From contig QPGO01000119.1 in NCBI GenBank assembly GCA_008632985.1, forward strand, positions 124,001-188,000: a stretch of 64,000 nt of DNA. Direction: 5' to 3'. This stretch comes from Psammoneis japonica (lineage: Eukaryota). Below the pieces are notes generated by a model. That model had not been told where the DNA came from. It was given only the letters and a program-made list of their open reading frames with translations, and ran no database searches. Below, piece after piece: positions 1,961-41,389 of the stretch. Position numbers and translations under genes: made by a program. Positions within the stretch are counted from its first letter, which is position 1. Each line of letters starts with the position of its first letter.

Positions 1961-2153
1961 CATTATTTTTGTCACGAATGAATTGGAATCGCGGTTTTGT
2001 TCGGCTGGGTCGTGCCAAGCAAGAACGACACAAGCCATCGCGGATTTCATGAACACAAAAAGAACGAGAGCGACCACAACTACTAAAACTACCAATTGAG
2101 TTTATCATTTTGAATCTGCTCTCCCTACTTTATTTATCAAAGGAATCATCACA

Positions 2154-3276: not shown

Positions 3277-3632
3277 AATAATACAAAATTTGGGGTGGCC
3301 TTTGAAGACGCATACTAGATGATGTGATACAGTATGATTTTAAGAAGGTGTGTACTTATTTTCAGATTGAAATAGTTAGTGGTAGATCCATTTTCCGTGT
3401 CCGCAACTTAAATCGTCGAACAGCTTTTGCGCCGAAGTGACCAACTCTGTGCCCTCCATATAGCAAACTCGGCGTCCAAGCCAAACGTAAACACAAGACC
3501 TAACCGCACGGTCGGGCCAGTGACTGGACCAGCTCTGTGGAAACTGTGTGCTCCTGAAAAGAAAAACAACATACCAGGTTCGGTAGGGATGCTCCTCAGT
3601 GAAACTTTTTTTTTCTTGCTGAAAGCTGCGCG

Positions 3633-7348: not shown

Positions 7349-9639
7349 CTAGTTATTTGGTAACGAGAAGGCATATGCGGACCCTGAATTCTCACCATTA
7401 ACGTCGCGCAAAAGTGCCGTGACCCCAACGACAGTTCCATTTGCCGTAACGAAAACGGACATTCCAAACCAATCACCCGCTGCCTGTCCGTTAATTGGAT
7501 CCCCCAAGTTGCTCCATTGTTGAAAATTTGAATCATATTGATATACTGTAACTTGACCTGCTTGTTTCCGCCGGTTGACTTGGTGCCATGGACTTCCAAC
7601 GCCACAACATTTCCATTTCCGCTCAATGACACTGACCAGCCAAACCAATCCCCTTCTTGTTTTGGTCGAAGCTTTTGACCACGCCGTCTCCACTTTGCTG
7701 TGGCACGGTCATATTCAAAAACTAAGGCGTATTCTGGTTTACCCAAATGCGCACCGGCTGCCATGAACCGACCCGAGTCATCAAGAGAAACAGACCAACC
7801 AAATTCGTCTTCACTACCAAGTCCTTCAATTGGGGTCCCCATTGCTTCCCAGAGATTTTTCGACAAATTGTATTCATATACTTGCACCTGACCATCATTC
7901 TGCCCATCATTGGTTCCACGACGTGCATCATGAAATGGTGCTCCAACTGCAACAATGGATCCCTCCAAATTCAAGGAAACTGACGTACCAAATTTATCAT
8001 TGGCGGCTCCACCCAGAAGAGGTTCTCCAAGATCATCCCAAGAACGACTTTCATTATTGTACGCAAACAATCTAACTGACCCAGAATTTTCGCCAACGCT
8101 GTCATCTCCTGTTGCTCCGGCTGCAAGAATGTCTCCCGCCCCAGACAATGACACCGAAATACCAAATTCGGCGTCTGCTCCTAGTCCAAAAATATCGTTG
8201 CCACGTTGGATCCAGTCGCCGGCGGTGGAATTGTATTCAAAAACAACAACCCGGCCTGCGTTGATTTCATCACTGAAGTTTACGTCCCCGCCTATAGCTA
8301 TAATTGAACCATCAGCATTTAGCGAGACGGACGGGCCAAACGAGTGGCTGTTTACTTGCCCCACCAAATCATTCCCAACGGACACCCACTTTTCTTTGGA
8401 CGGATTGTATCTAAGTATAGAAATGAAGCCAGGCTCGAATCTTTGATGCGCTGCCACGGCCATGACAGTTCCGTCTCGCGACATGGCAAGAGACCTGCCA
8501 AGCCTATCATAGGTATCGTTCCCGTGCAGAACTTGTCCCAACGGCTGATAAGGAACATTTGGAAGCAGAGGCTCTGGAGTTGTTGGAGCTCGCGTTGGCA
8601 TTCCTGTTGTTGGGCGGAGGCTTGGAGATCGCGTTGGTATTCTTGTTGTTGTTGGGTGGGGGCTTGAACCTCGAGATGGAAGCTGAGTTGTACTGCGAGT
8701 TGGAGCTTGCGTGGGAAACGAGGAAGGACGTTGCGTATCACGGCTACCATTATCACGGGACAAAATAACAGCCATCAACGCTGCAGCAGTAGTAGCAACG
8801 GCCACCAGTACAACTCCCAGCATAACATACCATTTGCGGTGCAGGCGTTTCTTTGAACTTTCCATATCGAAGGCATCAGCGCTTTCACTACTGCTTCTGT
8901 GTAGTTCCGTAGCAACAACTTGTTCAAGCTCAGCCACCAATTCGGCCTCGAGGAGGACAGTGCTGTTGTCGTTGCGTGCCGATGGGAGATCTGTTGACTG
9001 GACGGACCCAAGATCTGAGACCACGGTCTCATTGTCGTGATTGTCCCGAGCTCGAGGAATCACCCTGCCTCCTTGGCCAACTGCGACTGCGCCAATAAAT
9101 GTTGGGGTGATATCATCTTCTTCTTGAGGCGCCTCCTCCTCTCCCTCTCCGAACCTTGGAGGATTCAGTGGTGTCGTAACATCCGCATTGGGAGGAGGAT
9201 GTGTCTGGTGGTGTTCTTCAATAGCTCCTAGTCCTGTGTGTCCTTGAGCCTTTTGTCTTTTTCTCTCATCTTTCCATTTGTCACTGTGAGAGGATAACCG
9301 AGAACGGACGTATTTATTCCCTGAACTCGAGAATCCATCATTTGCTGTCACCCTCTCATTTTTTCCGACGTGTTCTACCCTTGGTTGTCTCTTTTTTCTT
9401 TTTCCAACTTTCTTCTTTCTCTTCTCCTCGCAGCTGATGCCCGACGGTAATTTACCGACCGCTCTCACTTCTTCAGACTCTCCTTTCACGGACTCGACCA
9501 TGTTCTTGTCGACTTGGGTCTCTTGTCGATTGCAGGCGTTCGTGGCGTTGCTCCCGCCCCGTGTCGTGCGTTGCTTGTCGTCGGCCCCGACGTCGGACGT
9601 CGAGGAGGCGGCTTTCTCGTGGTTGCGGCGTTGCTTCAT
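7349..9639 (-). CDS. Type II membrane beta-propeller (FG-GAP-like) protein; one frameshift near 7600
   Basis: ORF 7207-9663 gives the N-terminus, TM (WYVMLGVVLVAVATTAAALMAVIL), stalk and propeller repeats. The last repeats (VGSPWH..AGQVTVYQYD..GDWFGMSV..AYAFSLPNN*) lie in ORF 7349-7693. Confidence 0.85.
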
Positions 9640-9977
9640 TGTGATCGAGCAAGCAAGGTTCAATGACTATGAAATAGTGCGTGAAGATCCAGAGAGAAAG
9701 AGAGCGTGAAGATCAAGATGGACGCTAACGACTGTACTTTACACCCTATCTACAGTACACGCGAATGAAATCGTGATTAAAAGATGAGATCGCGGATCGG
9801 ACAAAATCACTTATTGATTTTCAACATTTATTAGTGGTCGAAACTATGTAAAAAAATTACCATTATTTATCATACGACTTATCCAGTTCGCGCTTCCAAT
9901 GGTCCTGTCGTGAGTCCCCCCCGCCCCACTCACTTCCACAAATCAACCTCATAAAGGAAGTCGAAGAGGTTCAAGAA

Positions 9978-12566
9978 ATGAAATCGCTTGCGAAGGGAAT
10001 ACTTTTACTCCTTGCCTGTGCCTGTAGTCAAGCAAAAGGTATGAAAATTGTGAGATTCACCAAAACTGATTGCCAGCACAGTACAGAAATGTTCCACTAT
10101 TCTCATCTTCATCCTTCCGCAACATGCATCAGTAGATAGCGTGACTTCGTTATCGCAAACAAGTAAAGGAAATCGAACGTTAGTTGAAAGCCGAGGCGCC
10201 TGTTGCATGCCAAATAGCCGTAGATGCAAGTACACCAAAGCTTCAAGGTGTGAAAAGAAGTTTCGTGGAACGTTTATTGGGAATGGTGTCGGATGCGATC
10301 GAGGAACGTGCCCTCCGCCTACAGGTGCGTGTTGCATTGCCACCACAGAACAATGCATGAACAGAAGTAAGAAACGTTGTGAGAATGAAGGAGGTGTATT
10401 CAAGGGGAACGGAACACCATGTAGATCTGTCTCCTGCAGAGTGAGGAATCCAACACCCGAAAAAAGCCCACCCCGCCTAAGTAAAGGACCCGGTGCATGT
10501 TGCACCCAAGATGGACAATGCTATGAAACCAACAACGAAAAGACTTGTTTTAATAATGCTGGCTACTTCCAAGGGAACGGCAGCACATGTAAAGGCAACA
10601 GCTGCCCGGAAAAGCAGGATTATCAGCCAGTTCAACCACGAGTTTTCGTCCTCCAGAGTTTCGTTTCGCTTCTCTCCCCTTTGTCTGGAGAAGAAGTCTT
10701 GTTACAAACCGGAACACCACAGAATGATGCGCTAAATTGGTTGGTCTTTGAAGCTTTGTCAACCGCAGGAACAAGCGAGGACGAGGAAATTCCGGAGCGA
10801 TATGCTCTCGCCGTACTATTCTTTTCGACGCAAGGACAAGGCACGTTTTGGAACTCGTATCGCAACTTTCTCTCAGAAGAACATGTTTGTGATTGGGCTT
10901 ATGTGCACTGCAATGGTGGCACAATAAACAAAATCATAATCCGTAAGTGTTTTGAAATGCAATGTCTTGAGTCCGGAGATTGTTTGTCGGTTCTAACAAA
11001 GGTCATGCTTGGAAAAACATCCAACGTTCCACAGCGAACAACAATTTGCACGGCACACTCCCCAAAGAGCTCAGCATCATGTCAGACCTGAAGTCCATCG
11101 AGATGGAGTATAACTTCCTCACGGGCACTATTCCTCAAGCTTTCGGTAACCTCACAAAGCTGGTGCGGTTCGATGTCAGTTTCAACTCAATGACTGGGTC
11201 GCTTCCGCCATCCCTATTTCGAATTCAGAGTCTTAAGAAGTTGAGGCTTGACGGAAACATCTTTTCCGGGTCATTACCATCCACGTTTGGAAGGTCTATA
11301 CTCGTACTTACATGCAGCGATTGCTCGCTGAGTGGCAAGATACCAGAATCCATCGGAGACCTGAGTGGTTTGTTGCACCTTGATCTATCGTATAATCGTT
11401 TCACGGGTAAAATTCCTTCCTTTCTTCGAAGCACCAAATTGACAAAGCTGATTCTTAAAGGGAACATGCTGACAGGTTCAATCCCAAAATCTATCGCAAC
11501 CTTAACTTCCTTGGGCATTATTGACATTAGGGAGAATTTTCTTTCTGGTACGGTACCGCGATTCAGTGGCACAGAATTGCTTGAGGTCAGGGCGAACGAA
11601 AACAATCTGACAGGTTCCCTTGACGATTTTTTCGATTCGTCTTCGGAGACGATTACTTGGGTGCGTTTCGAGGATAACCAGCTATGGGGCTCTGTTCCTG
11701 AAACAATTGGCAACTTTATCCATTTGGAAGAATTGGATTTGTCTAGGAACAAGCTCGTGGGAACAATCCCGCCCTCTATTGGCAACCTTAGAAACATTTC
11801 GACATTGGATCTCCATGACAATTCTTTAAACGGCCCTTTAACTTCTGAAATTGGGAACTTGTTGGATCTGGAAGCGCTCGATGTCGGCAGAAACTTCTTG
11901 ACGGGTGTAATCCCTCCATCGGTTACGACCTTGCCCTTGTTAAGCGTCCTGTTGTTGGATGGAAATTTCTTGAATGGAGAGATTCCGTCTTTTGTTTCCA
12001 AGAAGCTAGAACGTGTCTGGCTTGGGGAAAATGAACTGGATGGGTCGCTTCCATCGGAACTTGGGCGAATGGATAATCTTCGAAGCCTTGATTTGTCAAA
12101 CAATTTGTTGACGGGGTCGGTTCCCTCGGAGCTTGGAGGACTGGAATCTCTTACCAGCTTTGATTTGTCAAACAATGCTCTCACTGGGTCATTCCCAGCT
12201 ACCACGTCCAATTTTCATTTTCTTGGTGGGTGCTTTCTGACAAGAGCGAGTCTTTCGGTGTTTCTTGTTTCTTCAACACTATATGAACTTACAACATATC
12301 CTTTTGTTTCGAATGTTTTCTCGATTCTCGTAGACGAGCTTTACCTTTATGGAAATGATTTTGAAAACGATTTTGGCGATACCTTTTGTGCGCGACCACA
12401 CAGGGACATTGATGTATTCTTCTCGAATTGTTTGGATGATGCAGTGGACTGCCCATGTTGTTCTCGCTGCTGCAATCGCTTCGGAGACGGGTGTAAAGAC
12501 AACCCCCCTTCTTCACCAACACCCGTGCCATCATACACACCTCATGGTGATGGATACTTTGATTGA
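9978..12566 (+). CDS. Secreted LRR protein with three N-terminal GACC Cys-rich repeats; introns 10039-10132, 10943-11034 and probably 12226-12333
   Basis: Exon 1 MKSLAKGILLLLACACSQAK (signal peptide) splices in phase to ORF 10141. Diatom-type LRR N-cap (PQNDALNWL..ERYALAVLFFST..W..VCDW..V.C), plant-like LxxLxLxxNxLxGxIP repeats, C-cap CPCCSRCC. Confidence 0.88.
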
Positions 12567-12699
12567 TAATAGCAAAGTTCAAAGACGTGTCCTTTTAACA
12601 AACGACTTCTCTCTAGCTACTAGAGAGTTTCCTTTTCGACTGATGTTCGACTGTTCGACGTCCCGCTTTTATCTTCGAGGTCTGTACGGTAGTCTGCAC

Positions 12700-13162
12700 C
12701 GGTGGGTCGTGCCATTTCATGCCGGATGCTGGATGCGGATATGCCGGGCAGATGCAATGCCGGGTGGAAAAAACACGAGGGTTCAACTTTTCACCTTCTC
12801 CCAATCCAAGTGTTCGCCAGCTTGGTTAACAAGCCCTACAGTGTCAGAGATGCATGGCTTTGAATGCCAAACTGTTGCATGGGAACGTCTCTAGATTCTC
12901 AGGATAGCACGGAAATTTTGTCACTCCATTTCAGACTCAAGGGAGGGCGACACTTGTCCATCACAAAGAGCAAGGCGAGCGCCTCAAACCTCAGTTCACA
13001 ATGAAAGAATCCAATGATGAAATCAGCAAATGCTGGTGGACATTGCTTGGTGAAGAGCATCATAAACCACACTCTGACAATGGTGACAAGAGTTGCAACA
13101 AACAACCCAAAAAGGCACAAAAAGCGGGGAGTGCCCCCAACGTTGTCTTGCACTGGGGTCCC
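12700..13162. other. Partly TpA/CpG-depleted degenerate sequence; left edge of the large decayed-TE block
   Basis: Few TA and excess TG/CA compared with the upstream LRR gene. No recognisable product. Confidence 0.45.
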
Positions 13163-13551
13163 GACGCGTTCCAGCCCTAGGTGGGACTCCGTGTGACATT
13201 GGGCCCGTAGAATTCTACGTGCGAGCTCCGTAGTACGAGAATTTAATTAATGTATATATTTATCTTCAACATCAAATAAACGGCCAAGTTTGTGGTACAA
13301 TTATGCCTCTTACCACTCGACGTTTTTGCAAATGCACCTGCCCTACGCGATTCTTAAGACATTATAGAATCGCGCTGTAACAAAAAATGTCAAAAGTTTT
13401 TGGACGGATCGCTCAATAAGTGTACCGTAAAATGACACAAAATGTAAAAAAATCACGTAGAATTCTACGTGCGCGACATACGACGAGATTAAAAAAACTA
13501 TCGATGTCACAGTTCAGTAGTACGAGGTCCCACCTAGACCTGGAACGCGTC
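13163..13551. mobile_element. Non-autonomous DNA transposon (MITE), 389 bp, 25-bp TIRs, 4-bp TSD TCCC
   Basis: Left end gacgcgttccagccctaggtgggac; right end gtcccacctagacctggaacgcgtc (reverse complement matches at 23/25). TCCC on both flanks (13159-13162, 13552-13555). Internal direct repeat cgtagaattctacgtgcg at ~13206 and ~13456. Confidence 0.9.
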
Positions 13552-13555
13552 TCCC

Positions 13556-14900
13556 CGCCGGTCCAACCAGACAAGCAGCCACCCATTGCACTGCCAAGAC
13601 AGCAACATTGGACCCCCACAATGGCAATCATCAAGAAGGGATGCTGGACTTCTTTGCTGCCATTGCAAGCAGTCAGTCCCGCTGCAACCCCGAGGCACTG
13701 TGCGCACGCCCAATGGGGCCACACCTCGGATCACAACATTTCAATGGCCATCGCAATGCACTGCAGAGCACAGGGCAAGCGGGAGACCCAGGATGCACTC
13801 AGGCAAGTCATTGGATTTCACTGCCCTGCTGCGGTGGTTGGAGACCCACAACCATGGGATGACAATCAGCAGTGTGGGCTGGTTGGCGAGATGCACCACC
13901 TTGCCCAGCACCAAATTGCGGCATTCCCAGACAAACAGATGAAGTCATGCAGCTCATGCCAGCAGGCACACACATGCTCCTGGGTGACAGCACCACTTTG
14001 GCCACCACACAAGCTGACCAGGAAAGTTCATTTGGCCACGTTGCCAGGGAGATCAAACAACGACATGTTCTGGAAACATTGCATTGCCTGCGGACATCCA
14101 GAATCAACCATGGTGCTTCCCCTTCTGCATCAAGGGCCAACACAACACAATTGCAGAAGCCACACTGACCACCACCATGGCAGCACTCAAGAAGAGTGCC
14201 GAGATGCATTCTTTGCTTGGGTGGAGGCCAGCTGGAAGACCAAATGGGTCTTCAGCAATGGCCCAAGTTTGGGGGCTGAGAACTGAGGCCATGATTGCCA
14301 GCTGTGTGAATGCAGCCACCCCCACCACCCCCACAGGCAGTGAGGTTTGTCAGTCAATGACCATCTCTCACCACACACATGGACAGGCTGCTCTCATTGC
14401 TTCAGCTCAGTCTGACAAATCAGGTGAGAGCATTTTGCATGATGCATCTGCACCATGTTGTCATGGCCTCAGCCATTTGTTGCATCTACATTGTCAACAA
14501 GATGACTGGGGTCCATTGGAGCAAGCACAACACCACCTGATCCAATGGATCCCAACCCAAAGGGTCACAAGCAAACACTGCTGTGGCGCACCTGCGGCCA
14601 TTGCTGGTGCACCACAGAATGCTGAGGAGCTTGACAATGGAGTCATGAGTGCCCCCCACAAGTCTGCTTGTGAGTTTGTTGATTTCCTGCATGAGGACAT
14701 GGCGGATCATGTTGATGAGGGATTTTGGGTGGCACAGTGCCCTGCTGCGGTCAAGACCATCCCTGGTTTGCACATCAGTCCTGTCAGGGTTGTCCTGCAA
14801 TGTGGCCACTGACCCAGACCAATGGTCCACTGCACTTTCCTTGGCACCAATGATGCCACGCAACCCAATGCAGCCATCAAGGCCATGCAATTTGGATGTG
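13556..14900 (+). mobile_element. Decayed tyrosine-recombinase (DIRS/Ngaro-like) retrotransposon, 5' part up to the start of RT
   Basis: PHKSACEFVDFLHEDMADHVDEGFWV..VKTIPGLHISPVRVVLQCGH*PRPMVHCTFLGTNDATQPNAAIKAMQFG matches, from recall, the diatom YR-element RT start (HKSA..FL.EEM.....GFW.VLPY..V..LPGLR.SP.GVVPQR.RRPR..VDY.F.GVN......EAMQFG) once Y->H/C and R->H/C/* changes are reversed. Confidence 0.8.
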
Positions 14901-17600
14901 TCAGCACCCCATTCTATGGATGACAGACAGACCTGGACAGATCTCTCCAAGACAAGACAGACAGATCTGCTTCTCTCATTCTTTCTCACCAGCGCACGTG
15001 TTGTCCACTGTTGCCAGTTTGCAGGGAGCTCTTTAGCTTGTTGCTTTTGCCATCGGCACTCTGTCAGGTCATGGCCTCATCAGGTTGCTTTTTCCTCTGC
15101 AGTGCAAGCCTCATCTTGATTTGCTCAGATTGTGAGCCAAACAAGCCTGCCACCATTTTTCCATCCCAAAGGTGAGATTTTTCATTGATGCGCAGGCATC
15201 ACACTGGAAAATCAGCACCAGGTTTCCACCATGCATGACCAATTTTTTGCACACTTGTGCACCATGATGGGTTGCAAGTTCAAAAAGAGCATTGTTGATG
15301 TGCTCAAAGTGATTGAGGTTGTTTTTCAGGAAAACCCTCATTTCCCTGATGACACAAAGTTCCTGAAGAAGATGACTTTTGCATGGTGACACAATTCTTG
15401 AACTTGAATCAGTTTTTGAAGACAACAAACACACCCAAGCCAAGGACGGTGTTCATGAGCTCACATGGGACCACATCCTTCACCAGTTCATCATGCCTCA
15501 CAAACAAGGGACCCCAAGGATGCAACAGCTGTTGCATCAATCTTCAGTCAAGCTCCTCTCATGGTGAAGACTTGATGTCCATGGTGGCAAATCTGTGTCT
15601 CCCCTCTCCCAACAGACACTTGAACAGAAGATCCAACTTGCTCTTCAAGAAGGCAATTGGGTGGTGTGCATTGTCATTGGTGCAGAGCATGTGCACTTCA
15701 ACTCCAATCTTCAGTGGCCCTGCACGGACTGGAACAAGTTCTGCTTGGCACCACAAACATCCAACTGAATGTTTTCATCTCCACCATCATTGGACAAAAC
15801 TCCCACATTGGTTTTAACATCCGATCCTGTCATGGTCTCATGCAAGGATGCATCAAGTCCTCCAAGGCCACACATGACACCTGGCGGGTGAAATGGAGAA
15901 CCCCTTGTGTCTTGCATGACCAAGGATGTGCTGTGCAGGACTGACCTGTCACTTGTGCCCCCTGCAGCAACAACAGCAAATCAGACATCAGCACATGTTG
16001 ATGATCTTGTTGTGATGTTGTGTGGTTCTTCCTTGGGGCCCAAATTGCCAACTGTGGCTGCCAACACATCTTCTGGAGGTCCTGCTGTGTCTGTTGAATC
16101 CATTGATTCTGATGTCACTTCCATTGCCAGGGACACTGGGAAAGTTCAAGCAGGTTGCTGTGTTCAGGTCCAAAAGAGCCTGATCGCCGCCATGCCAAGT
16201 TGCACCCCAACTCCATGGAGAGGGTGTTTTCCTTGATTGTCCCTCAGATGCCTTCAAGAACATTGCATGGCATGATCTTGAGATCCCTCAGGTCAAGATT
16301 GCCAGACCTGTGCATTTCGACAAGGACCTGTTCATCCTCCCTCATGTGAGGGATGGATGCGATCAGGGCACTTCCCGCCCTTCCAGTGACCATGATGGAG
16401 GATGCAAGAAAGCTGCTGTGTGCTTTCCACTGCATCTGTGACCCATCATTGACATCCTCATGGCTTCATGGCACATCCAAGTTGGGCCCAGTTGTTGTGT
16501 GTGCTGCTTGCAGCTCTTGCACCACTGTTGTGTCTCAAGTTTGCAGCGCACATTTGCTGTGGGTGCCATGATGGATCCCAGGAATGCTGTTTCAACAAAC
16601 ACCAAGTCTGCTGTGTCTGTTGTGAGGCCTGACAGCAGGCCATCTACAGCGATTGGTGGTGGCTCCCCAGCTGCGTTGTCCACTGATTTGGTGGAACTTC
16701 ACTTCGATGTCCAAGCCAGCTTTCTCTTGACCCCAAAGTTTTTTGGTTCTGGCAGCCCCACTGTCCCGTGCAATGGTGGTCACATTCATCTGTTGCACGG
16801 GCTGCACTGCATCACCAAGGTCACCCATGAGCTGCTTGCCACCTCTGTGATGCCATCATGTGGTGCTTGTGGATGCAGCCACAGCTCCTCTGTTGGCTGC
16901 CAACAAGTTGTTTCATCTTTGGATTTTTGGCTCAGCCGCCATCAACTCTTTTGGACACATGACACTGCCGCTCCTTCCATCATTTGAACAAGACCATTGA
17001 AAGCAGGGCGGGTGGCTGTCAAAGAGGGCCACCAAGTCTCACCACCTTCTGCTCTCCCACCTCTTTCCTCTGTTGTTGGGACCACTGGCTGTTGTGTCCA
17101 CTTGTGCTTTTTGTGGTGCTCTGGACCTGCCCGCCATCGCTGACAATGTGCAGTGTGCATGCAGACAAAAGGTTGTTTTTGTCACGCCCTTTGTGACATT
17201 TAAAGGCTGTGACACGTCGCCGTGATGCATTGGCTCTTGTTGGCAGCTGTGTGTTGCACTCCTCCCCATGTGTCACGCGTCCATGCGGCTCTTTACTAAC
17301 GTGCACTGACACTGCACGGTTTTGGCGGAACAGTGTGGGTGCGTGCGAAGGAACACACAGAACTGCACAGAGTTTTGCGTGTTCGACAGTGATCAACGTT
17401 GCTGCAGACAACTCCCACTCAGGGTTTCGAACCCCTGGCCTCCTGCCTGATGGTTGCGATGAACCACTCCGCTGTGAATTCACAGTGCAGTGTGCATGCA
17501 GACAAAAGGTTGTTTTTGTCATGCCCTTTGTGACATTTAAAGGCTGCAACACGTCGCCGTGATACATTGACTCTTGTCAGTGGCTGTGTGTTGCAAATGA
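14900..17600 (-). mobile_element. Unidentified decayed insertion nested in the YR element
   Basis: Interrupts the RT right after AMQFG, has the same TpA/CpG-depleted composition, shows broken protein-like frames on the minus strand and ends in a 111-bp direct repeat. Family not recognised; boundaries and strand approximate. Confidence 0.4.
17148..17595. repeat. 111-bp direct repeat, copies at 17148-17258 and 17485-17595
   Basis: gtgcagtgtgcatgcagacaaaaggttgtttttgtca...gctgtgtgttgca occurs twice with few substitutions. Confidence 0.95.
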
Positions 17601-17699
17601 CCCTTCATTTCCTGATCAGGGGAGGGAGCAATGTGACACAGAGGAAGCACACAAGATTGACAAGTGTGCCAAGTCTTCCAGTGGTGAGTTGTTGGGTGA

Positions 17700-19489
17700 C
17701 CAAGATTTGCACGTTGCTGAAAATTCACACCCACCAAACATTGCCCCATTTCCAACAATGAACAAGGCACTCCATGTTGCACCATGTTTGTCCAGTGAAC
17801 TTTCCAAGGATGCAGAGCAACGCAAATGCCGCGCTGCCTCTGACTGTTGCTGCGCCTCCTGGGGGGAATCTGGTTGCTCTGCACATCACCCCAGCAGGCT
17901 CCTGGGGCTTGTTTTCAGAACTCCAAGAGGCCCTCCACCACACCATGTCCAACTCACGGGTGCCGCATCTCACCACTGACATCCACACCATCTTAGATGA
18001 CTTCCGAGATTTGCACTCCACACTGGACAAGCCCCCCACACAAACTCCAGAGTTGGCGCCACTTGCACCTGCCATCCACAGCTGTCATGACACCACTGGA
18101 CATGGTGCAGGCAGAGTGTTGTCACCAACGCCAACCACCTGACCACATGCTGCCTGCTTGCAATGCAGCCCACATGCTCACAGCTGTTGACAAGATGACC
18201 TTGGCCCCAATTTGTGGCTTGTGCCTTTCCTGCAGGATGCTGCCAGTTTGTTTGCCACATGTGAACATCCCAGTGGCCCAATCCCCAGCACAGATCTGAG
18301 ACCAGTTGGATCCATCATCCAAGGTGTCACAGCTGCTCAATGTTTTGACATCCATGAGTGTGCTCACTTGCAACATGCAGACAACAGCTTGGGAACCTTG
18401 CATGTTGGCAACAAAAAAGTTTCTCTGCCACAATGAAACCCTGGTCCAAGCTCCAAGCTCCAAGCTCCTCTGCCATCAAGCCTGCCACCAGCATTGCCAT
18501 CACCAAGTTGGCCTTCATGACTGCACACACCTGGGCCCATCAACGCTGCAGCAGGCAATGCCTCCCATGTGCAATCACTCACCAACTCACAGCTCTTGTC
18601 ATGTTTCAGCACTGCTTGCCCAAAGAGCAAACTGTGGACCCCACCACCCATGCCATGTTCCTGCCTCTGATCTTGGCACTGTGCAGCACACCATTGCCAA
18701 TGCAGCTGCCCTTCAAGACCCACCACCAACAAACATTGGGGCTTGTTGACCAACTTCTTCTGGACACTGAATTGGCCATCAACCCACTGCTGCTCCAAGA
18801 ACACGATGACCCAGTCCTTTTCCTGCAAGTCTTCCTTGGCAATTTTTGCACAAGACAAATCACTCTCCACCACCACCATTGAGTCCATTGCTGCACTGCT
18901 GAAGAGATGCCCCGTGGTTGTTTGGCCATGTGCTTGCTTCAAAGGGGGCCATGGACCTGTGCCTTGCATTGCAAGGGAACATGGATTTCCGACCCATTGT
19001 TGCAAAAAAGAGGACCCACCACCAGGCCTGGTCAAACCAGTGCCAGTTGCCATCCTCCGCTGGTGGATTTTGTCAGCTGCCACAACCAGCCCACACCCAG
19101 GCACCTCAGCCACCATGGACATGATTGCTTTGACACACTTTTTCCTCACCCACCCTGGCAAATGTGCTGCCATGCCATCCAACACCACCTGACCTTCAGC
19201 ATTGTGCTGGCAGCACACATCTGCATCTTTTTGCCACTCCAGATGCCCAACTTGATGCCTCCACCTTTGCCACTCTGACACTTGCCACCCAGAAGGAGAG
19301 TGGCATCTGTGGTGAGGTCATTGGTTTGGGCTCAGGCCACCCCTGACTTTGTCCAGCTGAAGCTTGTCTCTGCCAGATCCCGGGTGAAGCACAGGTGCAC
19401 CCATGGTGCACTTCTTCCTGATGCACATCTTTCACCCCATTTCTCTGCAGAATGATGGTGCCATGTTGCCCCCACAGATGTCATGTCCA
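17700..19489 (+). mobile_element. Decayed DIRS/Ngaro-like retrotransposon, 3' part: RT end/RNase H and tyrosine recombinase
   Basis: AGSWGLFSELQEAL..DIHTILDDFRDL..PELAPLAP..HDTTGHGAGRV resembles the RNase H start DASG.GAGGV. EDPPPGLVKPVPVAIL..MDMIALTHFFLTHPGKC and STFATLTLATQKESGICGEVIGLG..LCP resemble YR motifs FFFLLRPGEY and TF.TQKNG.RGE.I. Confidence 0.8.
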
Positions 19490-21860
19490 GACACATTTCA
19501 GCCCTCTCTGTCCAGAGGTGGGTGGGTGGGACTGCGTGGTGTGACACTGGGCCCACAGAATTCCACGCGCAAGCTCCACAGCAAAGTGTGAGGCCATGAA
19601 CACATGAATGACCACCAACAGAATCCAAGCCTGCGGGGAGCATTGACCACTTGTCCTTTTTTTTGGAAAAATTCTGGAGAGAAGTGCAAAAAACATGCCA
19701 GAACGTGTGCCACTGCTGGCACGGAGTGGGTCAGGCCCTGCACACATTTTGCACCACAGTGGTGCAAGCCACTTTTGTGAAGGCTCCTGCGCATGCAAAT
19801 TGGTGTGAGCTCCACACAAAAGCCTTGGAAATTGGAGTTCTTGTGGTGCACAATCTCAGCATGCAGTGGCAAAGAACTGACAAAAATTGCTCCCCAGGTG
19901 TTGTGCCAAAATCACTGCCTTGAAACAACCATGCTGCTGCACACAGTGGAGCATGCAACACTGGTCTGTCAATGCTGCCGTTGCATTGCCACAAGCTGCA
20001 AGTCATTGTTTCACCATGGCGGAACCCCCGGATGACACAAGCTTGTTGTCAGGTGTTGACAAACACACTCATTGTGTGGTGTGTTGGTCAGACTGGTTTT
20101 GTTGGAATGGTGGCCACTGTGTCACCATCATTGAATGAGGCATCTCCAGCACAAAGCAACAATGTCACTCCATCTGCTGTGACCACTCCCTTTGCAGCTT
20201 TTGCCAATGTGAGACCCAGCATCAACAACATCACCCCGGCTGCACTTGCTCCTGCTGCTGCTCCCATGGTGGGAGACTTTTGTCATCCTCAATCCTCAAC
20301 AAGTGTGGAGCTGCAAGCTGGGAAAGGCTGATGTGTGCCGGCATGCCAAAACACAAACCTTCTGGAAACAAGAAAGCTTTTTGATGAGGTTGCCAGCAAA
20401 GAGTTTCTGATGCATGGAATGTTCAACATGGCCAAAAAGATGACTTTTTCTGGTGATTTGGTTGGACTTGGCGGTGAGAATCTCACAGCAGTTTGGAGCT
20501 CTTTTAAAAAAACAGTTCCACACACCTGTCGCAGAGAATTTGTCAATTTTTAGAAAGTCCCCATGAAGTCTCTAATGTCCTTGATGATGACCATCCTTCA
20601 AATTTGCATTGATGTGAATTGAACGGCCCAGGCTGCACTGTTCCAAAAATGATGGGGGCACACTTTCAAATGGCACAACCAAGAACCCCCACCAACCAAC
20701 TGACCCCCAGAGACACAAAAAAGTCTGTGATCACCAACCCTGACAAACTCTTTCAAATTTTAAGCACATCATTTTCAGTTTGCCTGCACATTTTTTTCGG
20801 ACATTGACCCTTCAACCACCATGGAGCAAATCTCCACAGGTGGAGATTTGCTTGATTTGAGGAATTGTGATGTGTCATGCATTTGTGTGATGACACAATG
20901 AACATGGCACAAAAATGTTGCACCATGTGCAATCTGCACAAAACACACCACAGGCATTTGCTCATTGCAGACAGAGATTGGCTCCAAGGGTTTTGCATTT
21001 GGTGCTACATTGTGACAGTGACTCATCACAAATTTCATTGTCAGAGGTTGAGATTTGGCTCTTCTCCATTCACAGATGAAGTGTGCAAAAAACCCAGTGT
21101 CAAAAGTCAACATTGAACTTTTCAAATTGCAAAAATGGTCCCCCAGAGCTTTTTGGCAAATGTGTGTTCAAAAACAAAATTGTGCAATTTGTTCACCAGC
21201 CATGTCTGAGAACAACACATTCAATGCATTTGTGACGCAAGCGAGCGCCCACCTCTCCTGCCCTCTGGAGGCTCGGCCATCTGGCTTTGGGATTTGGAAG
21301 AGGTGCGCTGCAGTGCCAGCAAAGCCATCTCCACTCCAAGCAAGTTTTGGTCCTGTGTCATCACCAGTTTTTGAATCTGGAGGCACCACTCACAGCAGAC
21401 AACAGATGCAACTTTCCAGGAAATGCCGACAATTGGCATTTGACTGGCTGTGGGAATGTCTGCAGTTGTTGCACCAAACATCATGCATGGTCACAACTGT
21501 CTCACACGCACTCTGTGGTGTCTTGCAAATGGACAAACTTTGAGCTGCCACTGAATGCATGCATTTTTCATTGCGACACATCCGGGCTTGTTGCACGAAA
21601 ATCAGGAGCTCCCGCATGAAATCGACCGCCAGCCGACCATCCATGTCACACGATTGTCAACTCAACAATGATCAGCCCCATTTGCACAGAACAGATCAAA
21701 TTCAAGCCTCTTTAGAGCTGATTCCTGAATGCCAAAAATGTTCAAAACACCACCTTGACAGCTCACTTCAGGGCGGCAAGAATCAAAACATGCTCCTCTG
21801 ACTGTCCATCACCTCACACAAACGAGCACTTTTTGTTTTGGGTGCAATTTGAATCTCTGA
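19490..21860 (+). mobile_element. Hypermutated longer relative of the 13163 MITE (left end recognisable), followed by decayed coding-like sequence
   Basis: 19490 gacacatttcagccct..ggtgggac..gtgtgacactgggcccacagaattccacgcgcaagctccacagca aligns to 13163-13235. No right TIR found, so the end coordinate is only the start of the next recognisable segment. Confidence 0.55.
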
Positions 21861-21871
21861 AGTCTGAGATT

Positions 21872-22100
21872 CTTCAGAATCCATCTTGGCAGCAGTCAGC
21901 TTGGTCACAGCAGCTTCCTTTCTTTGGAACAATGCAAAAATTGGGGCAGCCTTTGAAGATGCACGTTGGATGTGACACGTCGTGATTTTGAGAAAGTGTG
22001 TGCACTGCTCATTTTCAGATTGAAACAGTCAGTGGTAGATCCATTTTGCATGTCTGCTGCTTAAATCGTTGAACAGATTTTGCGCCCAAGTGACCAACTC
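21872..22100 (+). pseudogene. Hypermutated duplicate of 3222-3447 (3' end and downstream region of the Cys-rich GPI gene)
   Basis: Collinear match, e.g. cttggtca(t/c)agc(g/a)gcttcctttcttt(a/g)gaa(t/c)aat(a/g)caaaa and ...gtgaccaactc. Confidence 0.9.
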
Positions 22101-22160
22101 ATCATTCTTTGCTTTTGTCGTGTCCAACAAATGTGGCTCACCCGCACTGCAGGATCATTA

Positions 22161-22481
22161 CTACGAATTGCTGAACAATTGCGCGATACACGTGCCCGAA
22201 GGGTGATTGTTGCTTCGGGCACGAAATTCGAGCTTCGCGCACGTAGAGACCGTAGAAAATAATATACCAGCATTCGAGAATGTCCGATTTGTGTAGATCA
22301 CGTAGCACAGTACCACAGAGGTCATTGATGAAATTACTTCAACGACTCATGCGACTACAATTAGATTTTCAATACCATATGCTATGTAGAAAGGACATCT
22401 GCGCGAAGGAAGAATGTTGCTTCGGGCAACGATATTCGAGCTTCGGGCACGTGTATCGCGCAATTGTTTTGCAATTTGTAG
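22161..22481. mobile_element. Tc1/mariner-type MITE, 321 bp, 41-bp TIRs (CTAC...GTAG), TA TSD
   Basis: ta|ctacgaattgctgaacaattgcgcgatacacgtgcccgaag ... cttcgggcacgtgtatcgcgcaattgttttgcaatttgtag|ta, with 3 mismatches between TIRs. Subterminal repeat tgttgcttcgggca..attcgagcttcg near both ends. Confidence 0.92.
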
Positions 22482-22806
22482 TACTTTGTGCTCTCCACAA
22501 CGACTCTGATCGACTCGTTCGATTCGATCTCATTCGTGCAAGCGTCAAATTTCATGAAGTCTCTCTCTAGAGCTAGAGTAGCTGGAGAGCACAAATTGAA
22601 AACATGGTGCAGTGCATCCTCATCCGGCAAGGAACGGCAAAAAAGCATCTACTGTACGAAATGGGAACTATGTATTAAAATCTTAAATGCATGTGCAAAC
22701 AACATGAAATCGGGTGAGTCAAAAACAACAACAACAACATCTCAACAGCCATCCATCATCTTTAATCTCTGGGATGCTTGCTCTTTTTTGCCGGAGGCTT
22801 GGCGTC

Positions 22807-24582
22807 TTAAAAAGTGTAGTAAGGCTTGTAAACGACAATGTCGTTACTCTCGTCTTGGGCTCTGGCCAATACCTCTTGGTTGCATTGAACAAAGGGAGAC
22901 AAGGTTGGCTTCATCCAGCACTCGACATCTTCAAGTCCCAACTCGTTCATGCGACGGAGCCATAAGAAACGCTTGTTGAGCGTGCCTTGGCCCGCGCCCA
23001 CATATTCAGGAGGAAGGGCACCAATTTCAATCAAGAGCGTTTCGTGCTCTTCGTCGTCTTGAAGCGTCGCATCCTTGGAAGCATACCAGTGCTTGCCCTG
23101 TAGTCCAAAGTTGGAGTCTCGTACTTGAAACAACGAGTTGGCTCTGTCAAGGACCAAACCGTGAATGACAATTCCGCGAAGGACGGGTTGAAAGCTCAAC
23201 ATGTCATTTTGGGTAACACTCTGTGCCATTTTGTTTCCCTTCCAACAATTGCACACGTGGTAGACAAGTGCCAAGGCGGTCCTTCGATCTTCGTTGAGTT
23301 CTTCGGCCCACGTTTCGCCATTTTTAAGTGCTCGGGCCCACGCCTCGGCTCGTTTCTCGCGAGACGCAAGACGCTCCGTCCATGAACAAGAAGTATAGCC
23401 TTGTGGTTCACCCTTTGTGACATATTTTTGAAGGTTGGTGACGCACTTTTGAAAGGACGGATCGCGATAGATAATCTCCTGAAACTCGGTCATTCTGGAG
23501 TAGGTCTTGATTTTCATTCTCAACTCTTGATGCTTTTCGAGTGGAATCTCGGCAAATTCGTCGGCACTGTTACTGCTATTGGAGTTGGTTTCTGCACGAG
23601 CAGTAGGGTGCAACTCGTTTTCAACATTGTTCTTGGACAAGAGCTGAGAATGAAAATCGGGAACAGTGTTGGAAACGAGTTGTCCAAGAACAACGTTGGA
23701 AACGAGTTGCACCGCGTCGACGATTTTGTCACACGAATGCGAATCCTGGTGGAGCTGGTTTTCCTCGTCTTGTTGCATGGGCGGTGTATCGTGTAGGCGA
23801 AAACAATTGATGAATTTATCAATCTCCTGGCGAGACTGGTTCTTCAAGAGAGCTTCGACAATCTTATCCCAGTCATTTGGATCTGTGGCCTTGGCGTATC
23901 TAAACGAAACAGGTTGCGTCGACTTGGCCCGAGGACCTGTCACGTGGGTCTTGTCCGGGACAAGTCCCACCGTATTCGCAAACATTAGTTCGCATACACA
24001 CCACAGTCGGCCATACACATCAGTTTTCGCGTTACGAAGAACAACATACTCAGACGCTTCCTTCAGAGCCTTTACAAACGGCGCTTGTTCCAAAGGGACA
24101 TCAAGCAGGTGTTTTATCGATTCCTTGTCTCCTTGCATGATTGCAAAAGAACAGATCCAAAGGTTGGGCCTCTTTGCCTTCGTCCCAAACACTGCCACAA
24201 TCGAACGAACAAAACTTGCAAAGGGCTCGGCCCAAGCGTGGGTGATGAAAGCGTCAATCTTGAGTCCATTAGGATTGTGGACCAAGGCGTATGATCGCTT
24301 CGTACGTTGACATAACGGCGCGATCATTTCATCAACAATGTCATACATGGTTTTGCTTTCGTAGTCGTCGTTTGCAAATTTGGTGGCCGCCTTCCTCTCA
24401 AATTCCATTAGCTCATCGTACGAAATCGCCCACAATGTTGGGTCCTTCTCAGCACTCTCTGTTAGTGGGCCAAAGGTGATTCCCTCTGATAGACCCTCCG
24501 CGTCAGCAGCCTGCGGATGTTCAGTTTCTGCAGCACGAGCCCTATGGTGCATGCCGTTTCCAACCTTGTTCTTGACTGACAT
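22807..24582 (-). CDS. Protein with an N-terminal HET/TIR-like domain and an uncharacterised C-terminal domain
   Basis: Motifs DAFITHAWAEPF, LWICSFAIMQ and GRLWCVCEL resemble the SH/Y.W, LW.D..CI.Q and R.W...E signature of HET-like domains. Stops 15 codons earlier than its paralog (GAA->TAA). Confidence 0.75.
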   Translation of the reverse strand: MSVKNKVGNGMHHRARAAETEHPQAADAEGLSEGITFGPLTESAEKDPTLWAISYDELMEFERKAATKFANDDYESKTMYDIVDEMIAPLCQRTKRSYALVHNPNGLKIDAFITHAWAEPFASFVRSIVAVFGTKAKRPNLWICSFAIMQGDKESIKHLLDVPLEQAPFVKALKEASEYVVLRNAKTDVYGRLWCVCELMFANTVGLVPDKTHVTGPRAKSTQPVSFRYAKATDPNDWDKIVEALLKNQSRQEIDKFINCFRLHDTPPMQQDEENQLHQDSHSCDKIVDAVQLVSNVVLGQLVSNTVPDFHSQLLSKNNVENELHPTARAETNSNSSNSADEFAEIPLEKHQELRMKIKTYSRMTEFQEIIYRDPSFQKCVTNLQKYVTKGEPQGYTSCSWTERLASREKRAEAWARALKNGETWAEELNEDRRTALALVYHVCNCWKGNKMAQSVTQNDMLSFQPVLRGIVIHGLVLDRANSLFQVRDSNFGLQGKHWYASKDATLQDDEEHETLLIEIGALPPEYVGAGQGTLNKRFLWLRRMNELGLEDVECWMKPTLSPFVQCNQEVLARAQDESNDIVVYKPYYTF

Positions 24583-25195
24583 GACGAAAGCACGGCACAA
24601 GGCGAGGGGAACTCTCTCTAGAAGCAGAGACTAGTTCTAGGGTAGAGTAGGAATAGAATAAGTAGCTTTCTCCAGCTCTCTTTTATGATGTCGGAAAGCT
24701 GGGAAGCGACTCAATCTGTCAAATCAATTGGATTTCGCGCGGTAAATTGTAGCGCGGGGGCCGATTGGATCTGCCTCTTGCACGTCGCCTTTGAAGACGC
24801 ACACTCTCTAGAGTAGATGTGATATTCAGATTAACTAGACTCTACTAGAGAGAGCGAGTGGTAGATCCGTTTTCCTTATCTGCTACTGTAGCTCCAACTC
24901 TATTTGAAATTTTTGTGCTCTCCACAGACTCTGGTCGATTCGTTCGATTCGTTCGATTCGTCTCATTCGTGCAACGAGTGTGTCATGACAACTCTACTAC
25001 ACTACAAGCATCCCCTCAAGCACAAATTGAAAACATGGTGCAGTGCATCCTCATCCGGCAAGGAACAGCAAAAACGTCTACTGTACGAAATGGGAAGTGT
25101 GTGTTAAAATCTTAAATGCATGTGCAAACAACAACATGTAATTGGGTGATAGCAAAAAAGAACCATCTCAGCAGCATGTTCAACATCCATCATCT

Positions 25196-26155
25196 TTAAT
25201 CTCTGGGATGCTTGCTCTTTTTTGCCGGAGGCTTGGCGTCTTCCAAAGTGCAGTGAGGCTTGTAAACGACAATGTCGTTACTCTCGTCTTGGGCCCTGGC
25301 CAATACCTCTTGGTTGTATTGAATAAGCGGAGACAAGGTTGGCTTCATCCAGCACTCGACATCCTCAAGTCCCAACTCGTTCATGCGACGGAGCCACAAG
25401 AAACGCTTGTTGAGCGTGCCTTGGCCTGCTCCCGCATATTCAGGAGGAAGGGCGCCAATTTGAATCAAGAGCGTTTCGTGCTCTTCGTCGTCTTGAAGCG
25501 TCGCATCCTTGGAAGCATACCAGTGCTTGCCCTGCAGTCCAAAGTTGGAGTCTCGTACTTGAAACAACGAGTTGGCTCGGTCAAGGACCAAACCGTGAAT
25601 GACAATTCCACGAAGGACGGGTTGAAAGCTCAACATGTCATTATGAGAAACACTCTGTGCCATTTTGTTTCCCTTCCAACAGTTGCACACGTGGTACACA
25701 AGTGCCAAGACGGTCCTTCGATCTTCATTGAGTTTTTCGGCCCACGTTTCGCCATTTTTAAGTGCACGGGCCCACGCTTCGGCTCGTTTCTCGCGAGACA
25801 CGAGACGCTCCGTCCATGAACAAGAAGTATAGTCTTGTGGTTCACCCTTTGTGACATATTTTTGAAGGTTGGAGAGGCACTTTTGAAAGGACGGATCGCG
25901 ATAGATAATCTCCTGAAACTCGGTCATTTTGGAGCAGGTCTTGATTTTCATTCTCAACTCTTGATGCTTTTCGAGTGAAATCTCGGCGAATTCGTCGTCT
26001 GCACTGCTGCTTGCAGCGATGGATCCTGGAGTTTCATCCGGATGCTGCTGTTGTTCGGTTTCTGTACGAGCAGATGGGAAATCGTTTCCAACAAGAGAGC
26101 AGGGATAGTTCTTGATTCCAATGTTGTGTGGCGGCGGCAAGTGATCCGCTGTCAT
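25196..26155 (-). CDS. Tandem paralog of the preceding gene lacking the HET/TIR-like domain
   Basis: Near-identical from ADEFAEI.LEKHQELRMKIK to the end. Shares start-codon context (cacggcacaaggcga), upstream region and downstream region. Confidence 0.75.
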   Translation of the reverse strand: MTADHLPPPHNIGIKNYPCSLVGNDFPSARTETEQQQHPDETPGSIAASSSADDEFAEISLEKHQELRMKIKTCSKMTEFQEIIYRDPSFQKCLSNLQKYVTKGEPQDYTSCSWTERLVSREKRAEAWARALKNGETWAEKLNEDRRTVLALVYHVCNCWKGNKMAQSVSHNDMLSFQPVLRGIVIHGLVLDRANSLFQVRDSNFGLQGKHWYASKDATLQDDEEHETLLIQIGALPPEYAGAGQGTLNKRFLWLRRMNELGLEDVECWMKPTLSPLIQYNQEVLARAQDESNDIVVYKPHCTLEDAKPPAKKSKHPRD

Positions 26156-26586
26156 GATGAAAAACACGGCACAAGGCGATGGGAACGAATAGAAGGATTA
26201 GTAGTAGAGAGTATAAGCAGCTTTCTCCAGCTCTCTCTTTTTGGTTTGTGTCACGATCGGAACATCTTTACCGACTATCGCCTCATCAATCACGGACTTG
26301 TCGCGAAGTCGTCGTGAAAAATTGATTCGTGATTCTGCGAGCGCGCTATTTCGCGCGTTTAATTGTGGCGCGGCGTTGATTCGATCTTCCATCCACGTAG
26401 CTTCTGGTACAATCTTACGTAAAAAGATCCATGACGCGCCACACTTTCTTTTTGTTCGATAACAGAGAGCACAAAGCCGAACCTTGCTTTTGCTTCCCTT
26501 TCTAGAACCAATAACAAACAAACCTTCTGATTGTCGTTTTGTTGTGTGCTGTTTGTAGCAATCACAACCATACTCTAGTATACGGC

Positions 26587-37885: not shown

Positions 37886-38280
37886 ATGGATACGTTATGC
37901 GGCACGACCAAGGACGCGCTCCAGGGGTTGAAGTTCACCGAGATCTTACTCATGTCACATTCTAATCATTATTTAAGACAGCTCATCTCCTGTACTTAAC
38001 GTTCGTGAATGAATAGACATTTTCGGAATAAGTAATACGTCCACGTCGAACGTCCGAATCCATGCAACGGAAATCAAAACGCGTTCACAAGTCTTGGATC
38101 GATGTTCGGGTCGAGGAGTTCGCCGTCTTCTGAACGCGATGCTTGATTCAGAAAAGAGAAGATAATAATGAAGATTAGGACTGAAGGTGCGGCTGCGTGT
38201 GAATTGAAACTATTGAACCATGTTACATTGCAGTAGGTGCAATTCTCACTCTTTCTGATTCTTTCTGTTTCGCGAAAAAG

Positions 38281-41105: not shown

Positions 41106-41389
41106 AGTGAAGAAAGAAGGTCTGGCTGTGTTGCCTTTGTGCCGTCTGTGCGATGTGTGGTCATTATTTGTGTCCGTCAGTGGCTCGACGGCCGGGCGGT
41201 CATTACCACCACCGCGTCATTGAAGTGATTGAGACTCTCCGAACTTTTGACAAATACGAGAATCATTTTTTTGCGGATCAAACGGACTTTCTGACTCTTT
41301 GTTGCTGTTGTCGATCTCCTGGGAGCACTTTATCAGAGCTACCATAATACTTTATGATTGAAGCAAGGAGATGTTCGAGAGTTCCGACC

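Follow-up and report, generated by a model that had tools for sequence, protein, structure and literature searches.

The question raised by this locus is whether two diverged copies of one short segment show the same DNA before and after a directed mutational process. The locus lies in a 64,000-nucleotide stretch of the diatom Psammoneis japonica (assembly GCA_008632985.1, contig QPGO01000119.1, positions 124,001 to 188,000, forward strand), which was analyzed as a whole and is called the window here. One copy, at 21872-22100, sits at the margin of a tract of about 9 kb that is depleted of the dinucleotides TpA and CpG and appears to have a degenerate retroelement at its core. Its twin, at 3222-3447, lies among genes. 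A reading of the letters alone had claimed that the copies differ mainly by TA to CA/TG and CG to CA/TG changes, that TA is the ancestral state, and that host sequence is converted by virtue of its position in or beside a transposable element. This sequence-only reading is largely right but needs qualifying on what "positional" means, on the contrast it drew with repeat-induced point mutation (RIP), and on which stop codon was lost. Our preferred explanation, to which we give a probability of about 0.6, is an episodic, regional hypermutation of a retroelement that acted on both DNA strands and leaked into the resident host flank.

The two segments are true duplicates, with 79.3% identity over 232 columns in a blastn comparison (E ~1e-52). 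In the global alignment, 184 columns match, 9 gap columns form three indels, and 39 columns carry substitutions, of which 30 are transitions and 9 are transversions. Going from the 3.2-kb to the 21.9-kb copy, there are 10 T>C, 8 A>G, 7 G>A, and 5 C>T transitions. If TA and CG are taken as ancestral, 18 of the 30 transitions are A:T>G:C changes in the 21.9-kb copy, and 15 of these 18 fall in a TpA of the twin. Thirteen of the 15 alignable TpA dinucleotides of the 3.2-kb copy are changed, to CA (7), TG (4), or CG (2), as are 8 of its 10 CpG dinucleotides (4 CA, 3 TG, and 1 CC; 7 of the 10 were altered by a transition). All other dinucleotides of that copy changed at 45 of 194 positions (Fisher P = 1.3e-6 for TA and 3.9e-4 for CG against the remainder). 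Counted per site, differences occur at 15 of 31 TA sites, all of them transitions, and at 8 of 20 CG sites, 7 of them transitions. At the 172 remaining sites there are 16 differences, 8 of them transitions and 8 transversions. The bias runs in one direction only: the 21.9-kb copy has just two TpA, both of which are also TpA in the twin, so the count is 13 against 0. T>C and A>G changes are interleaved along the copy. Alignment and classification by dinucleotide context thus bear out the duplicate that had been claimed and the kind of difference within it. All 14 changes that had been listed (10 at TpA and 4 at CpG) are present in the global alignment; for one of them, tgtact>tgcact at 3353-3354, whether the outcome is CA or TG hinges on the placement of a 5-nt gap.

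A pair of tandem units outside the tract, 22485-23560 and 24912-25995, was used to see how duplicates diverge ordinarily. Over 1098 columns these units are 90% identical, and change between them is symmetric. The sites that differ number 12 of 60 and 9 of 51 for TA, 9 of 119 and 8 of 116 for CG, and 52 of 883 and 56 of 895 for the rest. The two copies of our segment also differ in composition, given here as observed/expected (O/E) ratios of dinucleotides. The twin at 3222-3447 (plus strand) has values of 0.85 for TA, 1.04 for CG, 1.02 for CA, and 0.95 for TG, which is ordinary for DNA outside open reading frames (ORFs), and it was spared, as had been proposed. The 229-bp copy at 21872-22100 (plus strand) has values of 0.12, 0.43, 1.89, and 1.54. 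Its left part, 21872-22030, is fully converted and holds all 13 converted TpA. The remainder, 22031-22100, is a fading margin in which the TpA at 22036 and 22062 and the CpG at 22067 and 22083 are intact, and the final CpG conversions are at 22050, 22055, and 22070. Conversion therefore enters the copy from the retroelement side and fades about 160-200 bp in. It stops inside the copy and not where homology to the twin ends, which makes it doubtful that the process was guided by pairing between the copies.

The composition of the converted copy is that of the tract beside it, which extends from 12906 to 22035 (about 9.1 kb, later insertions included). Between 13567 and 22158 there are only 19 TpA and 120 CpG, against 1065 CpA and 959 TpG. 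The corresponding O/E ratios are 0.04, 0.22, 1.83, and 1.95; ApT, GpC, ApC, and GpT are normal (0.93-1.14). Across all figures for the tract, TpA lies at 0.03-0.04, CpG at about 0.2, and CpA and TpG at 1.8-1.95, and the missing TA and CG roughly equal the surplus of CA and TG. Outside the tracts, non-ORF DNA has O/E ratios of 0.73 for TA, 1.05 for CG, 1.07 for CA, and 1.08 for TG, and long ORFs have 0.48 for TA, 0.94 for CG, and 1.19 for CA/TG. The left flank at 12906-13147 is depleted as well, with 1 TpA where 11 are expected (P = 2e-4) and a CG ratio of 0.45. TpA loss is total up to the margins of the tract, and CpG loss is weaker in the outermost few hundred bases. The ratio of CpA to TpG shows no over-dispersion along the tract (chi2 48.0, df 41, P = 0.21), in contrast to two genic controls, which are over-dispersed.

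A second depleted tract begins at 62311 and runs off the end of the window at 64000, with O/E ratios of 0.02 for TA, 0.32 for CG, 1.82 for CA, and 1.66 for TG. It starts about 115 bp beyond the start of an ORF with an IBR domain (60105-62195, minus strand). Its TpA loss is abrupt at 62311, and its CpG loss deepens only past about 63000. No similarity between the two tracts was found with blastn or tblastx, and the first tract has no other twin in the window by the same searches. In both tracts together (13567-22158 and 62311-64000), 11 of the 16 surviving TpA lie in a YTAR context, which holds for 19% of 2000 control TpA (P = 2e-5). This looks like the flank preference of an enzyme. Surviving CpG are enriched in GCGC, GCGG, and CCGC. 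The flanks of the CpA and TpG products in the tract (for example, RCA against YCA) followed no clear rule.

The identity of the tract's core was approached through its protein relatives. A full HMMER search with the ORF at 14018-14809 gave 69 relatives (best E 5e-16). The reverse transcriptase (RT) family RVT_1 was matched by 7 of the 14 relatives scanned at E of at most 0.001, and by 6 of the 7 long ones at E of at most 0.1. These matches are weak, all of them under the Pfam cut-off (13.7-26.5 bits against 29.6), and their position in the relatives is directly after the part with similarity to the window. One relative (P0001) carries a YVDD motif. When the relatives were compared back to the window with tblastn, two collinear remnants were found on the plus strand. 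The first, at 14288-14920, corresponds to the region N-terminal to the RT and entering it, and contains stops as well as Y>H/C, R>H/*, and I>M changes; the second, at 17864-18637, is C-terminal to the RT. Since two collinear pieces are matched by RT-bearing relatives, the core of the tract appears to be a degenerate retroelement, and the transposable element block that had been assumed on sequence grounds appears justified by these putative pol remnants. The window's own ORFs in the tract gave no Pfam family, either among 34 of at least 100 aa or among 84 of 45-99 aa; the only matches among the ORFs scanned, SPRTN_ZBD and Salp15, were sub-threshold. Two ORFs of the second tract likewise gave no credible Pfam family, and a word-based homolog search with the longest ORF of the tract (317 aa) returned nothing. 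A motif search for RT, integrase, and protease found one HVDD, at 15994, which is uninformative alone. Judged by contig depth in a public sequencing run, the tract is mostly single-copy at a likeness of at least 80%, with interruptions by very high-copy small elements.

TA and CG are the ancestral state, and the copy in the block is the derived one, on four lines of evidence that agree: composition, the stop codon typical of the gene family, a sister copy, and the 69 relatives of the retroelement protein, which are unmutated. The 21.9-kb copy matches the composition of the tract and the twin matches the non-ORF background of the genome, which makes the former the derived state. Six changes, five of them transitions, occur in the 21.9-kb lineage alone at sites where all three copies of the segment align well, and they include CG>TG at 3309 and TA>TG at 3406. 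TA>CA at 3328 is specific to that lineage as well under a better gap placement. The sister copy keeps TpA at two sites that can be polarized. In the retroelement, columns conserved among the relatives were examined for mismatches of one transition. Those of the TA/CG>CA/TG type make up 11 of 12 in the first segment (baseline 0.50, P = 0.0035) and 12 of 16 in the second (baseline 0.45, P = 0.015). The codon changes against the relatives include Y>H, Y>C, I>M, V>A, L>P, R>H, R>Q, R>W, and R>stop.

The opposite polarity would require an ancestor rich in CA/TG, with TpA and CpG arising later in the 3.2-kb copy, perhaps by CpA>TpA changes like those of RIP. A pairwise comparison by itself gives no polarity, and such a history would allow the differences at 3313 and 3402, where neither sister copy has the letter of the twin. 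Against it, the 3.2-kb copy has ordinary non-ORF composition with no excess of TpA, and the TA-free state is common to about 9 kb surrounding the 21.9-kb copy. The opposite direction is indicated by the stop codon, the sister copy, and the protein outgroups alike, and gain of CpG from CpA or TpG would call for a second, opposite process. Reversed polarity is thus hardly credible, and it is very unlikely that the 3.2-kb copy acquired its TpA through a process like RIP. A hunt for further outgroups of the segment among metagenomes brought up 69 loci that matched a 17-mer, all of which were chance seeds of 19-34 bases.

The stop codon depends on what the segment was. The twin sits between a plus-strand gene for a secreted protein (2100-3241) and a convergent FG-GAP gene (3636-5462, minus strand). 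An upstream paralog of the former has a product that ends in ...DDSGASLRGSVLLSTFVLVMATLV-stop. At the 3.2-kb locus, the ORF as assembled ends in ...DDSGSSRASGPPC-stop, with TAG at 3239-3241. The adjacent frame reads SGFRSALLAVVLVIAASFL-stop, with TAG at 3274-3276, and thus has a hydrophobic tail of the same type and length after the same DDSG motif. Because the adjacent frame gives this paralog-like tail behind DDSG, the first ~55 bases of the segment are likely the tail codons of the family, reached through a frameshift in the assembly, and the remainder would be 3' untranslated region. The 21.9-kb copy reads ...ILAAVSLVTAASFLW and has TGG in place of the family-type TAG of 3274-3276. The claim that a TAG stop had become TGG therefore holds for this family-type stop; the stop of the assembled ORF, at 3239-3241, aligns to CAG. 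The host origin of the segment is upheld in the form of C-terminal tail codons and 3' untranslated region of a gene whose neighboring paralog ends alike. The frame-shifted family tail at 3190-3276 could be a truncating allele, a pseudogene, or an assembly indel. The upstream paralog also carries an 18-bp tandem coding repeat at 13-462, with about 25 units that encode PPQVTD-type hexapeptides, and a single unit related to this repeat lies at 3099-3141, inside the gene at 2495-3241.

Whether the 21.9-kb copy was converted where it stands, or arrived already converted, is decided by its neighbors to the right. Tandem unit 1 (22485-24630, minus strand) comprises a 607-aa ORF and its downstream region, and the converted copy is the outer end of this unit. 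Tandem unit 2 (24912-26197, minus strand) served as the control for ordinary divergence above. A third copy of the segment, partial and rearranged, lies in tandem unit 2 at 24784-24887 (plus strand) and keeps its TpA. The spacing of the units is about 2430, and the spacings of the segment, 2826-2838, come to about the same figure once the 384-bp insertion at 22101-22484 is subtracted. This match makes the third copy the sister of the 21.9-kb copy and the 3.2-kb copy the outgroup to both. A partial third copy had indeed been noticed, at 24788-24885, but its limits are 24784-24887, and it is a sister by tandem duplication and no outgroup. Because the 21.9-kb copy forms part of a resident tandem unit whose sister keeps TpA, it was, as far as these arrangements tell, converted in place. 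A resemblance of the sequence past 3447 to that from 22485 onward was seen by eye only, was not significant in blastn, and was not used.

The alternative is that a retroelement was hypermutated before integration, on its RNA or complementary DNA (cDNA), by an activity like APOBEC or ADAR, and carried the 229-bp host segment along as transduced sequence. The retroelement core and the fairly sharp edges of the tract would suit such an origin. The segment, in contrast, is colinear with the second tandem unit and hence resident, and conversion stops within it and not at its end. The strands were also hit equally and in an interleaved manner (T>C 10 and A>G 8 in the copy; CpA 1065 and TpG 959 in the tract), with no strand-coordinated runs. 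We consider editing before integration improbable.

Conversion in place leaves the timing of the process to be considered, on which younger insertions in and beside the tract bear. An element like a miniature inverted-repeat transposable element (MITE) lies at 13148-13566, with arms at 13148-13192 and 13522-13566. It is unconverted, with 32 TpA and O/E ratios of 1.0 for TA and 1.51 for CG, and its contig depth in the public run, 4e4 to 3e5 against about 60 for single-copy DNA, implies thousands of copies. An island resembling a short interspersed nuclear element (SINE) lies at about 17130-17600, is high-copy and unconverted, and contains 111-bp direct repeats (17148-17258 and 17485-17595) that are 92% identical. 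It has a tRNA-like T-arm motif and keeps dense CpG within the tract; ARAGORN and Rfam gave no match for it, and Rfam and tRNA scans of the window as a whole gave none. Immediately to the right of the converted copy, a second MITE-like element (22159-22483; 325 bp) with 43-bp terminal inverted repeats that are 93% complementary is unconverted as well; its depth suggests roughly 25-140 copies. This element and 22101-22158 together form an insertion that tandem unit 2 lacks. Either the process was over before the MITE and the SINE-like element inserted, or these insertions are very young. Such untouched insertions within the tract mean that "positional" can only refer to the region at the time of the event and not to a lasting property of the place. 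Position therefore did matter, in that conversion follows distance from the retroelement side, but an ongoing property of the place is contradicted by the unconverted MITE and SINE-like island.

The tract could also have arisen without any dedicated hypermutation, as old, methylated, silent chromatin in which CpG was lost gradually through deamination of 5-methylcytosine and TpA through a slow, context-dependent bias. The grading of CpG loss toward the margins of the tract speaks for this, as does the enrichment of surviving CpG in G+C-rich flanks, which is expected for deamination that depends on melting. Moreover, even in the control duplicate, TA sites changed about three times as often as other sites, and differences between the public run and the window suggest that CpG decay is ongoing. 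Such a bias would have to remove 13 of 15 TpA while the two lineages together accumulated only 16 differences at the 172 sites that belong to neither TA nor CG. The sister copy is still TpA at the two polarizable sites, so the loss took place within a short span. The changes are all one-directional, the insertions in the tract are untouched, and we know of no ordinary bias that removes TpA to an O/E ratio of 0.03. Gradual decay as the whole explanation is thus unlikely.

Another possible explanation is that the depleted tract is not real, and that modified bases in silent chromatin were systematically misread as CA or TG during sequencing or assembly. The chemistry behind the assembly and the public run is not on record, and the best-matching run is possibly of the sample behind the assembly. 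The run contigs do, however, reproduce the tract: 13527-15027, 15417-16836, and 17566-19654 are covered with 0-1 differing letters at a word depth of 58-66, like that of the flanks. A contig that spans 6352-13189 carries the converted left flank together with a host LRR gene. The run differs from the window at several places, and since it may be the assembly's own sample it is not fully independent. Misreading would also leave no reason for the 9 transversions and 3 indels between copy and twin, for codon changes that are coherent against the protein relatives, or for insertions within the tract that look unmodified. An artefact on this scale is quite implausible. A second run of the same sample (X2) gave contigs over genic parts of 3000-12337 and almost none over 13672-21675, from which nothing was concluded; one of its contigs, 3229-4297, has an end no more than 7 bases from the left limit of the duplicated segment. 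Among public sequencing data, a single study contains this stretch of DNA, and no RNA run that contains it is listed.

The hypermutation that we favor would have proceeded as follows. Segment 21872-22100 would be a resident, diverged paralogous copy of the 3' end of a host gene, at the right margin of the ~9-kb tract. A process acting on DNA, on both strands, would have driven TpA (near completion) and CpG (~80%) to CpA and TpG by way of transitions, with no other dinucleotide affected. It would have struck the retroelement, spilled a few hundred bases into the host flank, where it reached about 160 bp of the copy, spared the unlinked twin at 3222-3447, and ended before the MITE and SINE-like insertions. 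The spectrum of the changes, their polarity, the regional extent, the action on both strands, and the untouched insertions are plain in the DNA; the chemistry outlined next is more conjectural.

The CpG half may be deamination of 5-methylcytosine in a methylated retroelement, either spontaneous or aided by a RID-like DNMT4. Diatom transposons are reported to be cytosine-methylated through DNMT5a, and a RID-related DNMT4 of unknown function is given for 31 of 60 diatom species surveyed (PMC9998398). For the TpA half, A:T>G:C transitions at 5'-TA would have to come from a second activity, either separate or coupled to the first. Its chemistry is a matter of conjecture, and the candidates are deamination of adenine with a preference for a 5' T, or oxidation of thymine followed by mispairing with G. 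TadA/ADAT enzymes and fungal A-to-I editing act on adenine in this 5' T context, and oxidation of thymine to 5-hydroxymethyl- or 5-formyluracil allows mispairing with G. One chemistry that could unify the halves is suggested by the targets themselves: TpA and CpG with 5-methylcytosine each present a symmetric pair of 5-methyl-pyrimidines, and CpA/TpG presents only one. A reader or enzyme that recognizes the methyl pair could hit TpA and CpG and stop at CpA/TpG; candidates are a TET/JBP-like oxidase with mispairing products, or a deaminase recruited by such a reader. The whole process would act as a genome defence that kills the element. That this diatom at least has a genome-defence mutator which mirrors RIP, and which takes TpA and (methyl)CpG to CpA/TpG on both strands in the region around a retroelement, is a tentative proposal that we hold at somewhat less than even odds.

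Several points weigh against this explanation. It rests on one duplicated segment and two tracts within the 64-kb window, and the chemistry of its TpA half is conjectural. The ends of the element were not found, so that "flank" and "element" are told apart by the tandem-unit argument. The host-gene interpretation of the first 55 bases depends on a short, low-complexity hydrophobic tail that is frame-shifted relative to the upstream ORF. A word-based search found no homologs of the host gene (ORF 2495-3238), and its C-terminus was therefore compared with the neighboring paralog only. No polarity can be assigned to sites 3313, 3402, and 3405, where the two sister copies both differ from the twin, and at 3313-3315 parsimony favors CA>CG in the converted copy, counter to the trend. 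Finally, the public run departs from the window at three positions in the tract, and at two of these it has CG where the window has CA or TG, so CpG decay is at least partly gradual and ongoing and not the result of a burst. No description of TpA>CpA/TpG hypermutation, or of TpA-free transposons, in diatoms or algae was found in the open-access literature and bioRxiv.

The surroundings of the tracts contain genes of the FG-GAP, LRR, ricin-lectin, WD40, and IBR types, and these genes, like the nearest protein clusters, indicate a diatom. The WD40/beta-propeller ORFs at 38203-40734 and 41348-43267 are tandem paralogs that are 74-86% identical over many blocks, with a spacing of ~2540-2660. The window thus holds two tandem gene duplications, this pair and the units at 22.5-26.2 kb.

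The untouched twin and the resident copy offer a before-and-after view of a process that also makes A:T>G:C changes at TpA. If the proposal of a mutator that mirrors RIP is true, such a process removes every TAA and TAG, turns CGA into TGA, and alters Tyr, Ile, and Arg codons, and it would be the first natural eukaryotic system of A:T>G:C hypermutation of DNA. Genes and promoters adjoining such elements can be collateral targets, as the distance of about 115 bp between the second tract and the start of the IBR-domain gene illustrates. Should the process prove general among diatoms, a natural mutator of DNA with TA-specific A>G activity would be indicated, and RID-like DNMT4, or an enzyme that modifies adenine or thymine, would gain a testable role. 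The process would also explain why retroelements escape domain searches (0 of the 118 ORFs tested had a Pfam match), and dead elements could be annotated by their signature, a TpA O/E ratio near 0 with CpA/TpG near 2.

Of the known systems, RIP is the closest in outline. It is a DNA-level, both-strand, transition-only hypermutation of fungi such as Neurospora crassa, is set off by repeats in premeiotic cells, depends on RID/DIM-2, and can leak into unique flanks. The process described here shares with it action on DNA and on both strands, transitions with a dinucleotide preference, inactivation of a mobile element over kilobases, and leakage into the flank. The products are opposite. RIP makes only C:G>T:A transitions, mainly CpA>TpA, so that mutated DNA becomes rich in TpA and poor in CpA/TpG; the tract has a TpA O/E ratio of 0.03-0.04 and CpA/TpG ratios of 1.8-1.95, and A:T>G:C changes are the majority of transitions in the converted copy. 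The cytosine target is mainly CpA in RIP and CpG in the tract, where CpA/TpG is the end state. RIP also hits both duplicates over the duplicated length, and here the twin is untouched and conversion ends inside the segment. The sequence-only reading made this last contrast and was correct about the twin, but the test is weak, as RIP-type pairing is not expected for a 226-bp, already diverged twin that lies below the thresholds of RIP. A repeat-triggered process aimed at the retroelement itself may still have been at work.

Decay of methylated CpG in silenced transposons, known from vertebrates, plants, and methylated transposons of diatoms, resembles the CpG half closely. CpG>TpG/CpA change is confined to the silent element and its margins (CG O/E 0.2 in the tract against 0.94-1.05 outside), the loss is graded, CpG polymorphism is ongoing, and survivors lie in G+C-rich flanks. 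Such decay loses no other dinucleotide, whereas here TpA was lost more completely than CpG. The TpA half resembles the action of ADAR on double-stranded RNA, mRNA editing by fungal TAD2/TAD3, and TadA/ADAT (U33-A34 of tRNA), all of which prefer a 5' U, in its A>G change after T/U, including a TAG>TGG stop loss. These enzymes act on RNA and on one strand; here chromosomal DNA carries the changes, equally on both strands, along about 9 kb that include a non-transcribed flank. Editing of cDNA by APOBEC3-type enzymes likewise leaves a retroelement with clustered transitions that create stops. APOBEC editing stays within the element and is strand-asymmetric, with G>A changes on the plus strand and other contexts, unlike the symmetric changes at TpA and CpG that reach into the resident host flank. 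To our knowledge, the point-mutation defences known against mobile DNA (RIP and APOBEC) are all cytosine deaminations. The process at this locus is RIP-like in outline but lacks the defining features of RIP, and would be a kind of hypermutation directed at transposable elements.

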